Sequence record: PV659873.1
DNA: 64,000 nucleotides
From: Escherichia phage WPEC1
Reading direction: 5' to 3' (one strand)
Positions 45,563-46,613 of the stretch are shown here, piece after piece. Under the pieces are notes generated by a model that was given only the letters and a program-made list of their open reading frames with translations, did not search any database and had not been told where the DNA came from. Position numbers and translations under genes: made by a program. Position 1 is the first letter of the stretch, and each line of letters begins with the position of its first letter.

Positions 45563-45590
45563 TTGACATAGTTCTTAAAAAGAGTAAGAT
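45563..45590 (+). promoter_or_regulatory. sigma70-like promoter (TTGACA-16-TAAGAT)
   Basis: Hexamers by eye; followed by hairpin gcgggga-atagt-tccccgc (45601-45622) just before RBS of TerC-like gene. Confidence 0.4.
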
Positions 45591-45638
45591 GTATCACATG
45601 AAGCGGGGAATAGTTCCCCGCGAAGAGAGGAGAAAAGA

Positions 45639-46613
45639 ATGCAACTTGGTTTCCCAATTATCGATGTAGTTGTTTTAGTTGGTATTTTAGCATTGTCTAT
45701 TGGTATCGATTTCTTTGGTCATAAAGAGAATAAAGAAATTGGAATCAAATCTGCTTTGCTTTGGTCTGTTTTTTGGATTGCTTTAGCTTTAGGATATTAC
45801 GCATTCATTTGGGTAGAACATGGTAAAGAGTTCGCCGCGCTTTTCCTAAGTGGTTATGTCTTGGAAAAGAGTCTTTCTGTAGATAACCTAATGGTGTTCA
45901 TGGCAATTTTTGCAAGCTTTGGAATTAAGAGCACACATCTCCAACATAAGATTTTACTTTGGGGGATTGCAGGAGCCATTGTCTTCCGAGGTATTTTTGT
46001 TGCAGCAGGCACCGCTTTGTTTAACCTTCATTGGTCGGTTCAAGTGTTGTTCGGTTTGATTGTAGCTTGGTCTGCCGTGGCTATCATCAAAGGTGGAGAT
46101 GAAGAAGAGGATATTGACTACTCTAAACATTGGGCTGTTCGTTTAGTAGGTAAAATTCTGCCTGTGCACAGTGCACTGGATGGTGAAAAGTTCATTACGA
46201 TTAAGAATGGTATCAAATATGCAACTCCTGCTCTTCTTTGTGTGTTTGTTATTGAGCTTACAGATATTGTCTTCTCTTTTGATTCAGTTCCGGCTGTGAT
46301 CGGTGTGACACAAGAACCTCTGCTAGTTTATTCTGCAATGCTGATGGCTGTTCTTGGTTTACGTGCACTTTTCTTTGTATTAAGTGTAGCTGTTAAATAT
46401 CTAGTTCACTTAGAGAAAGCTGTTGCTGTGGTTCTGGTGTTTGTTGGTGCTAAACTTATGTATCACCCGTTCGGTGAAACACTTCATGCCAAGTGGTCAT
46501 TCCTCCCGCATGATATTTCCCCTAACGTAAGTCTGATGATTGTTCTAGGCACATTAGCTCTTGGTGTTATTGCAAGCTTTATCTTCCCTGAAAAAGAAGA
46601 AGCTGCTGTTTAA
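45639..46613 (+). CDS. TerC-family integral membrane protein
   Basis: 324 aa polytopic membrane protein; LSVDNLMVF and SFDSVPAV segments characteristic of TerC/Alx family. Confidence 0.65.
   Translation: MQLGFPIIDVVVLVGILALSIGIDFFGHKENKEIGIKSALLWSVFWIALALGYYAFIWVEHGKEFAALFLSGYVLEKSLSVDNLMVFMAIFASFGIKSTHLQHKILLWGIAGAIVFRGIFVAAGTALFNLHWSVQVLFGLIVAWSAVAIIKGGDEEEDIDYSKHWAVRLVGKILPVHSALDGEKFITIKNGIKYATPALLCVFVIELTDIVFSFDSVPAVIGVTQEPLLVYSAMLMAVLGLRALFFVLSVAVKYLVHLEKAVAVVLVFVGAKLMYHPFGETLHAKWSFLPHDISPNVSLMIVLGTLALGVIASFIFPEKEEAAV

Follow-up and report, generated by a model that had tools for sequence, protein, structure and literature searches.

The stretch of DNA that was analysed (the window, 64 kb) is Phapecoctavirus sequence (phAPEC8 group, genome ~150 kb). 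On its + strand lies terC (45639..46613), which starts with ATG and encodes, as judged from Pfam and NCBIfam matches, a 324-aa integral membrane protein of the TerC/Alx subfamily; the gene has been annotated as TerC before and in this respect is already known. Upstream, on the same strand, are a gene for a HAD-family hydrolase (43351..44007; weak Pfam Hydrolase and NCBIfam HAD-IA matches, PHROG 14393 at E=3e-117), a candidate Ter 'signal synthesis' phosphoesterase, and a gene for PRTase_3, a ComF-like phosphoribosyltransferase (44000..44827; Pfam PF15610, E=2.3e-41). These are followed by a gene for a DarG-like macro-domain protein (44840..45325; NCBIfam DarG, 2.7e-8; PADLOC DarG, 1.5e-9; PHROG 335), for which the Pfam Macro match (E=2e-4) falls just under the cutoff, and by an ORF for a 73-aa hydrophobic protein (45338..45559; PHROG 16065, E=6e-43). 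The latter is the final gene of the upstream operon and carries a CDS annotation in every relative; terminator and hairpin scans detected no terminator between it and terC.

The PRTase_3 and HAD genes lie 0.8-2.3 kb upstream of terC, and their order is kept in phAPEC8, phi92 and L109, with the HAD gene syntenic in all three and PRTase_3 adjoining terC in phi92 and L109 also. (L109-L111 are more divergent phage relatives known from assembled contigs only.) A tblastn search with TelA, TerD, TerB and TerF, which covered the window and hence part of the genome, recovered only inverted 26-34-codon fragments of the TelA N-terminus. TelA is present in the close relatives phAPEC8 and phi92, and TelA, vWA-TerF and TerD are present in L109-L111. 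Iyer et al. 2021 (Viruses 13:63, section 3.4.10; PMC7824862), who reportedly build on Anantharaman et al. 2012 in describing phage Ter systems, list PRTase and HAD enzymes among the components. Ter systems in phages have been proposed, as a conjecture in the literature, to remodel the envelope or metal status of the infected cell and to exclude competing phages.

The TerC protein and its relatives

The assignment of the product to the TerC/Alx type, made in the original prediction, is confirmed by matches above curated cutoffs to PF03741 (Pfam TerC; 137.9 bits, cutoff 27.8, E=4e-40, residues 71-276) and to NCBIfam TIGR03718 'TerC/Alx family' (318.5 bits, cutoff 246.4, residues 10-318). Membrane topology, which had been suggested as a check, also came out in its favour: Kyte-Doolittle plots with 19-residue windows, a crude method, give about nine hydrophobic segments (residues 1-29, 34-59, 78-96, 104-130, 131-154, 194-217, 227-258, 250-279 and 293-319). 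Phage TerC shares 34% identity with E. coli Alx (BLASTP). Export of Mn2+ by Alx requires the membrane-embedded residues E86, D92, E213, D216 and D222 (PMC10197570); these align with E76, D82, E206, D209 and D215 of phage TerC, positions that are invariant among 13 phage TerC proteins, and the duplicated E-x5-D-N and E-x2-D-x5-D-S motifs are found as well. Since all five acidic residues of Alx are retained, phage TerC is a probable transporter of a divalent metal across the inner membrane. A sequence search of solved structures with phage TerC found none.

Identity is higher (48-55%) to TerC proteins of the ter-operon type from plasmids, Pasteurellaceae and Vitreoscilla, whose gene neighbours are TerD, TerY, PP2C and kinase. 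By sequence, the closest bacterial kin of phage TerC are these ter-operon-type proteins and not the riboswitch-controlled Alx.

The view that TerC is unusual cargo for a lytic phage has to be corrected. Homologues (PHROG 7180) occur in 174 phage records from the Stephanstirmvirinae, Grimontviridae, Schitoviridae and jumbo phages, other Ter-system genes usually adjoin terC in these records, and phage Ter systems are themselves a described category (PMC7824862). The PHROG category of these proteins is 'moron, auxiliary metabolic gene and host takeover'. No match to the terC cassette turned up when 5,426 complete E. coli genomes were searched with blastn, and therefore no prophage or host copy of the cassette exists among them at the DNA level. 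Metagenome and IMG/VR scans added few leaders, all of the Stephanstirmvirinae type, and the majority of 80 metagenome TerC loci were bacterial TerC genes. The terC coding region has been swapped between phages, with breakpoints inferred close to the leader on one side and to the terminator on the other.

Promoter, terminator and leader of terC

The promoter upstream of terC (45563..45590, + strand) is predicted to be an early one of the sigma-70 type, served by host RNA polymerase, and consists of TTGACA (45563-45568) and TAAGAT (45585-45590) separated by a spacer of 16 nt. A consensus promoter scan of the region returned 17 sites where 16.7 were expected by chance and, because this is the chance level, carries no weight as promoter evidence. 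Comparison of 14 diverged leaders shows no variation in TTGAC or in the T, A and final T of the -10 hexamer, against a variable sequence in the spacer and flanks; the length of the spacer is 16 nt in 7/7 representative leaders (one per leader sequence variant). The same site is annotated as a host-dependent promoter in the phAPEC8 GenBank record. At the level of sequence, this footprint and the annotation show that terC has a promoter of its own, as the original prediction stated, and the promoter would be expected to fire; given its place in the phAPEC8 record, it is not new. At the other end, the terminator scan detected an intrinsic terminator (46620..46644, + strand) with an AGCCTCC-TTCG-GGAGGCT stem at 46620-46637 followed by ATTTTAT. 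Its 7-bp stem, UUCG loop and subsequent AUUUUAU have the GC-hairpin and U-run that define such terminators, and it is conserved in relatives, stem covariation included. This terminator was absent from the original prediction.

Between the promoter and the ribosome-binding site, covariation and folding identify a stem-loop at 45603..45621 on the + strand (GCGGGGAA-TAG-TTCCCCGC; in RNA GCGGGGAA / UAG / UUCCCCGC). The presence of a GC-rich hairpin at this place had been predicted correctly; its dimensions had been given as 7 bp at 45601-45622 and are revised to 8 bp at 45603-45621, comprising 7 G/C-rich pairs and one A-U. The hairpin alone folds with -13.1 kcal/mol and a z-score of -2.94, and 1/200 shuffles folds equally well. 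The window contains 10 perfect GC-rich hairpins; among those in intergenic positions, only this one lacks a T-run. Six hairpin sequence variants are found in related phages, all with stabilities between -11.2 and -13.7 kcal/mol and with loops of 3-5 nt.

All 14 sequences keep the seven core pairs (100% paired), five of which show double compensatory changes. In controls, 0/500 shuffles reached the observed values and slid partners paired at ~55%; the covariation is well beyond chance. RNAalifold predicted a single consensus structure in the leader, namely the hairpin; beyond it the program called just a 2-bp helix within the coding sequence. Two lineages have G-U pairs, on the + strand only, and these fit an RNA transcribed as the + strand. 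The stem-loop is shown here to be a selected RNA structure, and as a covariation-backed element it is a new detail of the terC locus. The original prediction was to fall if the leader lacked structural conservation in related phages; as the hairpin is structurally conserved, with its core pairs kept throughout, that ground for rejection does not arise. A covariance model of the hairpin by itself was given up, since the trimmed MAFFT alignment sets the two hairpin groups one column out of register and a 19-nt model would hold too little information.

The hairpin is present at 21/21 promoter-bearing terC loci and at 0/5 promoterless ones (L103 and L109-L112). Promoter and hairpin may co-occur merely through inheritance or transfer as one block. 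Only 8-12 nt separate the -10 hexamer from the hairpin. With the transcript start placed from promoter geometry at 7 nt past the -10 hexamer, the stem is predicted to begin at about +2 to +7, which leaves 1-3 unpaired 5' nucleotides in the Klebsiella and Citrobacter variants, ~5-7 in the variant of the window and 2-4 in the others.

The Shine-Dalgarno sequence AGGAG (45628..45632, + strand) lies 6 nt before the ATG in an A/G-rich spacer and is invariant in the alignments. It is unpaired in the consensus fold and does not pair with the hairpin. Its probability of being unpaired ranges from 0.08 to 0.92 among variants, and no sequestering helix is conserved. The low value belongs to the window's own sequence, in which a weak pairing with codons 4-6 is predicted (P(unpaired)=0.08); this speaks for condition-dependent translational control of the kind proposed originally, but the pairing is unconserved and missing from the consensus fold. 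The intergenic region (45560-45638) measures 79 nt, 28 of which are promoter, and the predicted 5' UTR measures ~42 nt, compared with 282 nt for the ygjR-alx intergenic region that holds the alx leader of E. coli. A leader of ~42 nt does not have room for the multi-helix aptamer and expression platform of a yybP-ykoY/alx-type riboswitch. Rfam scans returned zero matches in 45200-46900 at E<=10, no riboswitch in the whole window at the gathering threshold, and none at that threshold upstream of related phage terC genes or ter-type bacterial terC genes, the nearest bacterial homologues. These scans are weak, as they also missed the genuine alx leader of E. coli, and the argument is therefore carried by leader length and folding. 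Two switch designs were considered and rejected. An anti-Shine-Dalgarno switch through the pyrimidine-rich 3' arm is possible on paper in phi92 (UCCUC/GAGGA) and is neither predicted by folding nor conserved. For a preQ1-I-like mini-pseudoknot, the 3-5 nt loop finds no complement in the purine-only tail. The leader hairpin does not look like a metal-, ligand- or pH-sensing switch.

Possible roles of the stem-loop

The best reading is that the hairpin is a 5'-proximal stabilising or insulating stem-loop in a moron-like cassette that expresses a TerC of the ter-system type early and autonomously, and that HAD, PRTase_3, the macro-domain protein and TerC (with TelA in relatives) form an abbreviated phage Ter system; taken as a whole, this explanation has about an even chance of being right. 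Host sigma-70 RNA polymerase would initiate at the 45563-45590 promoter and yield a leader of ~42 nt, in which the GC-rich stem-loop would open 1-6 nt from the 5' end and be followed by an unstructured A/G-rich spacer, a strong AGGAG, terC and the intrinsic terminator. Most likely, in the classic manner of the 5'-proximal stem-loops of ompA and papA mRNAs in E. coli, the stem-loop would hinder RppH and 5'-end-dependent attack by RNase E, which would make for a longer-lived terC mRNA; it would also insulate the ribosome-binding site from upstream sequence. Read-through RNA of the upstream operon, after cleavage within the AU-rich promoter region, would gain the same protection. In the infected cell, TerC would act together with HAD, PRTase_3 and the macro-domain protein as the abbreviated Ter system. 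Stabilisation by such stem-loops reportedly (Emory et al. 1992) needs no more than 2-4 unpaired 5' nucleotides; the ~6 predicted for the variant of the window exceed this limit, which counts against the stabiliser reading. Stem-loop stabilisers at the 5' end, and the requirement of RppH for unpaired 5' nucleotides, have been reviewed (PMC3997798). A literature search found no relevant transcript-start, RNA-seq or TerC study for Phapecoctavirus or Justusliebigvirus.

The loop raises the question of recognition. U45611 and G45613 are invariant in 14/14 sequences (loop consensus RUDGK). A pure stability element has no need of these two nucleotides, which hint at recognition by a factor. A stem that covaries freely beneath an invariant U and G is a pattern typical of protein-recognised hairpins, and in all variants the gap from the hairpin to the downstream Shine-Dalgarno sequence is only 6-9 nt, as would suit an RNA operator whose loop is read by a phage or host RNA-binding protein or small RNA that represses or times the translation or decay of terC. 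Analogues would be T4 gp43 and RegA, along with the hairpins bound by the coat proteins of RNA phages. The sequences, however, represent only ~5-6 independent lineages, so that the loop may be conserved by inheritance and not by selection. No second copy of the motif was found in the window or within 3.5 kb on either side of terC in eight relatives, and hence nothing points to a regulon; such a hairpin is also missing from other promoter-proximal leaders of the window. The one match considered, in nrdG (42129-42151), lies within coding sequence, mirrors Cys-motif codons and was rejected as a copy. The absence of the hairpin where terC has no promoter of its own would be unexpected for control of TerC dosage, and a candidate for the binding protein was not found. 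An RNA operator is on balance rather unlikely, and the narrower proposal of a dedicated operator that links TerC synthesis, through a phage factor, to the state of the Ter module is improbable. This factor might be a protein, or else a nucleotide-like compound made by the PRTase, HAD and macro-domain proteins that acts via a binding protein.

It is similarly improbable that the inverted repeat acts as DNA, either as the operator of a dimeric repressor (+5 to +25) or as a recombination or cruciform site at a module boundary. Its position just 3' of the promoter is a frequent one for operators, and the exchange of the terC coding region among phages, with breakpoints near the leader and the terminator, would agree with a site of recombination. 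Yet the half-site differs at 5/7 positions between lineages with only complementarity kept, although an operator read by a protein should conserve its sequence, and the G-T 'pairs' of two lineages keep RNA pairing and break DNA symmetry. The inferred breakpoints, moreover, fall at the conserved region of the ribosome-binding site and start codon and not at the hairpin.

A further possibility is that the hairpin serves the upstream genes, attenuating or ending transcription of the HAD-PRTase-macro operon or protecting the 3' end of its mRNA, with no role for terC. As no terminator precedes terC, read-through transcripts must include the hairpin, and a stable GC hairpin can stop 3'-to-5' exonucleases. 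The tails that follow the stem, however (GAAGAGAG, ATTAAAG and TCAAAA; in RNA GAAGAG, AUUAAAG and UCAAAA), provide a U-run in none of the six variants, and the terminator scan does not list the hairpin. Lacking a U-run after its stem, the leader hairpin is not an intrinsic terminator; real terminators in these genomes have UUCG-type loops and then U-runs. Relatives without the terC promoter also have no hairpin behind the same upstream genes, and a function of this kind is improbable too.

Least probable is condition-dependent translational control by Mn2+, pH or another ligand in the manner of yybP-ykoY/alx, which the original prediction had raised. In its favour, riboswitches govern Alx, YkoY and certain further TerC genes in bacteria (PMC10197570). 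Against it stand the 79-nt intergenic region, a hairpin that leaves the Shine-Dalgarno sequence free, a loop and tail without a pseudoknot partner, and nearest relatives of the ter type.

Significance and comparison with known systems

The stakes are modest, because terC, its promoter and phage Ter systems were already annotated or described. The terC hairpin offers a well-defined test of how the 5' ends of early phage mRNAs are protected, and the arrangement of promoter, 5' hairpin, ribosome-binding site and terminator is a compact natural cassette that may be useful as an expression part. If instead an RNA operator were tied to the Ter module, it would be a new post-transcriptional control circuit within a phage-borne Ter system. 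The conserved gene order of HAD, PRTase_3, DarG-like macro-domain protein and TerC (with TelA in relatives) is found in a widespread group of coliphages that are candidates for therapy, which makes a role of Ter in phage-host and phage-phage conflict experimentally accessible in E. coli.

Among known systems, phage TerC resembles TerC of bacterial ter (tellurite-resistance or Ter stress-response) operons and the TerC/Alx subfamily, to which the E. coli Mn2+ exporter Alx belongs, in its full-length TIGR03718 match, its roughly nine hydrophobic segments and the five acidic residues that Alx needs. It differs in its identity of only 34% to Alx itself, in being encoded by a lytic myovirus, in having no yybP-ykoY leader and in that no TerZABDE genes flank it within the window. 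With the yybP-ykoY/alx leader (RF00080) the phage leader shares its position upstream of a TerC-family gene; it is several-fold shorter and has no aptamer, expression platform or conserved sequestration of the Shine-Dalgarno sequence.

Like the 5' stem-loops of ompA and papA (PMC3997798), the terC hairpin is short, stable, near the 5' end and placed before an unstructured ribosome-binding site, and its structure is conserved where its sequence is not. It differs from them in that its transcript start is a predicted one, in the ~5-7 unpaired nucleotides of the window's variant and in its two conserved loop positions. Classic morons are known from temperate phages, where the prophage expresses them, whereas the phage carrying terC is virulent and the neighbours of terC are genes of related function. 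The likeness to morons lies in a single gene with its own sigma-70 promoter and intrinsic terminator inside a longer same-strand array, and in the exchange of the terC coding part between phages. Compared with the described phage Ter systems (PMC7824862), the genome of ~150 kb is not that of a jumbo phage, TelA is not intact and TerB, TerD and TerF were not found in the window, and the PRTase is a ComF-like PRTase_3 accompanied by a DarG-like macro domain; as in those systems, PRTase and HAD 'signal synthesis' genes adjoin terC.

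The terC gene and the layout of its leader

The terC gene lies on the + strand at 45639..46613 (ATG start, 324 aa), and its product matches both Pfam TerC (PF03741, E=4e-40) and the NCBIfam model TIGR03718, 'TerC/Alx family metal homeostasis membrane protein', the latter with 318.5 bits (curated cutoff, 246.4). A hydropathy scan indicates about nine hydrophobic segments, as befits the membrane protein originally proposed, and no solved structure was detectable among TerC relatives in a search by sequence. Directly 3' of the stop codon a terminator scan reported AGCCTCC-TTCG-GGAGGCT followed by ATTTTAT (46620-46644, + strand), which is conserved among relatives with covariation in its stem.

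The 79-nt intergenic region upstream of terC (45560-45638, + strand) contains, on the same strand, a predicted promoter in which 16 nt separate TTGACA (45563-45568) from TAAGAT (45585-45590). It is followed by the inverted repeat GCGGGGAA-TAG-TTCCCCGC (45603-45621), a stretch rich in A and G, and a Shine-Dalgarno sequence, AGGAG (45628-45632), located 6 nt 5' of the ATG. The original prediction of this arrangement was essentially right in coordinates and description; the hairpin is present as claimed, with its extent amended from 7 bp at 45601-45622 to an 8-bp stem within the repeat.

A generic promoter scan carries no information here, as it yields 17 promoter-like sites in the region against 16.7 expected from shuffles. 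The positions that weigh most for sigma-70 are TTGAC plus the T, A and final T of the -10 hexamer, and these are invariant in an alignment of 14 terC leaders in which spacer and flanks vary. In the phAPEC8 record this site carries the label 'putative host dependent promoter determined with MEME', and the claim that the gene has its own promoter is therefore sustained. Leaders were gathered from 21 promoter-bearing loci (GenBank phages, IMG/VR contigs and metagenome contigs), all of which share a common plan: TTGAC[A/T], a spacer, a -10 element of the form TAnnnT and 8-12 nt precede the hairpin, and beyond it 6-9 nt of A-rich sequence lead to (A)GGAG, which stands 6-8 nt before the ATG. In each of the seven leader types for which it was measured, the -35/-10 spacer has 16 nt.

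Structure and conservation of the leader hairpin

The 65-nt leader is predicted to fold with -18.6 kcal/mol (z=-2.94), a value equalled by one of 200 shuffles. A scan of the 64 kb yields only ten perfect GC-rich hairpins. That of the terC leader is the sole intergenic one among them without a T-run; most of the rest are terminator-like and followed by a T-run. Six versions can be distinguished by sequence among relatives, namely GCGGGGAA/UUCCCCGC, GCGGGGAG/UUCCCCGC (with a G-U closing pair), GCGGAGGA/UCCUCCGC, AGAGGGGG/CUCCCUCU (with one G-U pair), GGGAGAG/CUCUCCC and AGAGGGAG/CUCCCUCU, and stability across variants ranges from -11.2 to -13.7 kcal/mol. The structure is conserved in relatives, as its seven core pairs are intact in 14/14 aligned leaders and five of them show two-sided changes. 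The observed pairing or covariation score was reached by none of 500 shuffles, and sliding the 3' partner by 1-3 columns lowers pairing from 88% (nine pairs counted) to 51-64%. Within the leader, RNAalifold recovers no consensus structure besides the hairpin; its one other call is a 2-bp helix within the coding region. This covariation-supported 5' hairpin is undescribed as far as could be found, and its class is a familiar one.

No second copy was found in the window or in the 3.5 kb flanking terC on each side in eight relatives, and membership in a family of repeated motifs was rejected on that ground; the other promoter-proximal leaders of the window (25173, 58264, 59746, 63208 and 63778) have no such hairpin. 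At 12094-12151 a promoter-like TTGACT, 17 nt and TATTAT are immediately followed by a terminator-like hairpin, GCCTACCT-N8-AGGTAGGC with TTTTT, and then by AGGAGG, so that promoter-like and terminator-like signals overlap in an arrangement opposite to that of the terC leader. Hairpins also occur just 5' of the terC ribosome-binding site in two unrelated phages, as UAGGGGA-GUAA-UCCCCUA between terB and terC in Vibrio phage PhiImVa-1 (L015 ~2966-2985) and as CCCCGGCG...CGCCGGGG in Brevundimonas phage Kikimora (L016 ~3900-3930); these could be convergent, or ordinary intergenic terminator or stability hairpins.

Possible functions of the hairpin

Five terC genes (in Klebsiella phage FBKp34 and at the related loci L109-L112) lack a promoter of their own, as each sits only 8-28 nt behind the preceding gene, and the hairpin is absent in all five. 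Their proteins are 66-88% identical to that of the window, mostly closer than the protein of phi92 (71%), which bears the cassette. Promoter and hairpin always travel as a pair. The hairpin is thereby tied to the transcript 5' end rather than to the ribosome-binding site of terC, which suggests a stabilising stem-loop of the classic 5'-proximal kind known from E. coli mRNAs. If transcription starts 6-8 nt past the -10 hexamer, the stem in the primary transcript would begin 1-6 nt from the 5' end. A base-paired 5' end hampers RppH and 5'-end-dependent RNase E entry (review PMC3997798 and Belasco papers cited therein), and the terC hairpin would act as a stabiliser by hindering both. We consider the chances of such a role, as stabiliser or insulator, to be about even; a caveat is that the window's variant may leave some six unpaired 5' nucleotides at the predicted start.

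Recognition of the hairpin by an RNA-binding factor, for which it would serve as operator, draws on the invariance of two loop bases in the alignment (U at 45611 and G at 45613), a further caveat to the stabiliser reading, and is an unlikely alternative. An operator at the DNA level is very improbable, as the G-U pairs fit a + strand RNA and not a DNA palindrome. An intrinsic terminator was rejected because no variant has a U-run, the tails reading GAAGAG, AUUAAAG and UCAAAA, and an attenuator appears highly doubtful. Sequestration of the ribosome-binding site by the hairpin was likewise rejected from folding predictions. The window's Shine-Dalgarno sequence is predicted to pair weakly with codons 4-6 (~-5 kcal/mol), and this pairing is not conserved, with P(unpaired) ranging from 0.08 to 0.92 among variants.

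Riboswitch-like control of the yybP-ykoY/alx type, suggested originally, did not hold up and has very little probability left, since the predicted UTR of ~42 nt is too short beside the 282-nt ygjR-alx intergenic region of E. coli and the Shine-Dalgarno pairing varies. Rfam gave zero matches for leader or window, a weak test given that the genuine alx leader of E. coli K-12, used as positive control (L117 2798-3081), was equally missed by Rfam 15 at the gathering threshold and at E<=10. Rfam negatives for alx-type leaders are not to be trusted, and the rejection therefore rests on length and folding.

Cassette exchange and the Ter-system setting

Escherichia phages WPEC2, WPEC4 and WPEC6 carry the 1.4-kb region at 100% identity, and ~50 further Phapecoctavirus genomes from the phAPEC8 group (Stephanstirmvirinae) carry it at 94-98%; these records label the gene 'integral membrane protein TerC', 'alx' or 'tellurium resistance protein TerC'. 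Comparison of 45338-46660 with phAPEC8 gives 97% identity for the coding sequence, 83% for the leader and 80% for the upstream ORF, whereas with phage Mt1B1_P17 the leader (97.5%), upstream ORF (96%) and terminator (98%) are close and the coding sequence is at 73%. These mosaic identities show that coding sequence and flanks differ in ancestry and that the coding region was exchanged between conserved leader and terminator, a pattern consistent with a moron-like cassette; Phapecoctavirus has two circulating terC alleles of ~73% amino-acid identity, which are swapped in this way.

TerC had been thought unusual cargo for a lytic phage. It is common, since a protein-level search finds homologues in 174 phage records from several groups and the family has its own PHROGs entry (phrog_7180, category 'moron, auxiliary metabolic gene and host takeover'). 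Among inspected records, terC lies beside HAD, PRTase_3, macro and TelA genes in Stephanstirmvirinae (phi92 and Klebsiella, Citrobacter, Salmonella and Serratia relatives), beside Prs, NAMPT and TerD in Grimontviridae (Privateer, A24, BUCT695), within TerD-TerD-TerB-TerC-TerB in the Schitoviridae (PhiImVa-1), and with TelA and TerD in Brevundimonas jumbo phages (Kikimora).

In the window, terC is preceded on the same strand by genes for a HAD hydrolase (43351-44007), a ComF-like PRTase_3 (44000-44827; PF15610, E=2e-41), a macro-domain protein (44840-45325) and a 73-aa hydrophobic protein (45338-45559). Gene order is identical in phAPEC8 and phi92, with a TelA gene (PF05816) a few genes downstream, and in more divergent relatives from assemblies PRTase_3, TelA, vWA-TerF-like and TerD genes surround terC. 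The macro-domain protein, which in phi92 has an additional N-terminal part (238 aa), is nearest to the DarG antitoxin macrodomain (NCBIfam NF048014, 2.7e-8; PADLOC DarG, 1.5e-9) and is a candidate for counter-defence against DarTG-type immunity; DarG is a DNA ADP-ribosyl glycohydrolase. Between nrdG and the HAD gene, a 201-aa ORF (42744-43349) without a match in a Pfam search resembles PADLOC AbiEi antitoxin models (E=8e-13 and 1e-11) and may be a phage-borne antitoxin mimic acting against AbiE abortive infection. Two genes 5' of terC, FBKp34 has a gene annotated as bacterioferritin-associated ferredoxin (L103 6-197; BFD-like [2Fe-2S]), a metal-homeostasis context.

Synteny with phAPEC8 stops past a SprT-like ORF (48239-49033). 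TelA, next in phAPEC8 and phi92, is not intact in the window, where no more than its initial 26-34 codons, together with the C-terminal end of the gene before it, occur at two distant places (48823-49283 and 23842-24070), in several copies and inverted orientation; the arrangement downstream of terC differs in WPEC2 as well. These fragments represent either a short inverted repeated element or misassembly in WPEC-type genomes. At 27290-27442 two perfectly matched 75-bp arms around a 3-nt loop form a 153-bp palindrome, which falls exactly where likeness to other Phapecoctavirus genomes ends: 27446-27750 is 100% identical to many phages, 27000-27442 matches WPEC6 only, in four pieces, and the WPEC records have 26-30 scattered matching places for the region. 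The appearance is that of a fold-back or chimera from assembly, or of a genuine rearrangement junction. The 13 tRNA genes, in two clusters plus one isolated minus-strand gene (8052-9481, 24544-25012, 30542-30612), are typical for the phage group.

Existing records already annotate both the terC gene and its promoter, and the literature already covers the phage Ter-system context. The window's TerC is 34% identical to E. coli Alx, 48-52% to plasmid ter-operon TerC proteins and 52-55% to TerC of Pasteurellaceae and Vitreoscilla, whose genes neighbour TerY-type vWA proteins, TerD paralogues, PP2C and a kinase; judged by these identities and neighbours, it groups with ter-system TerC proteins and not with riboswitch-controlled Alx. 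Mn2+ export by Alx requires E86, D92, E213, D216 and D222 (PMC10197570), which align with E76, D82, E206, D209 and D215 of the window's TerC and are invariant across 13 phage homologues, and the protein may reasonably be taken for a functional divalent-metal transporter or metalation factor. Iyer et al. 2021 (PMC7824862, section 3.4.10) describe the Ter system as comprising PRTase and HAD enzymes making a nucleotide-like signal, TerB/TerD sensors, membrane TerC and TelA/TerF scaffolds, occurring in jumbo 'and certain other related smaller tailed phages' with a proposed role against superinfecting phages, and this component list is matched by the genes around terC in the window and its relatives.
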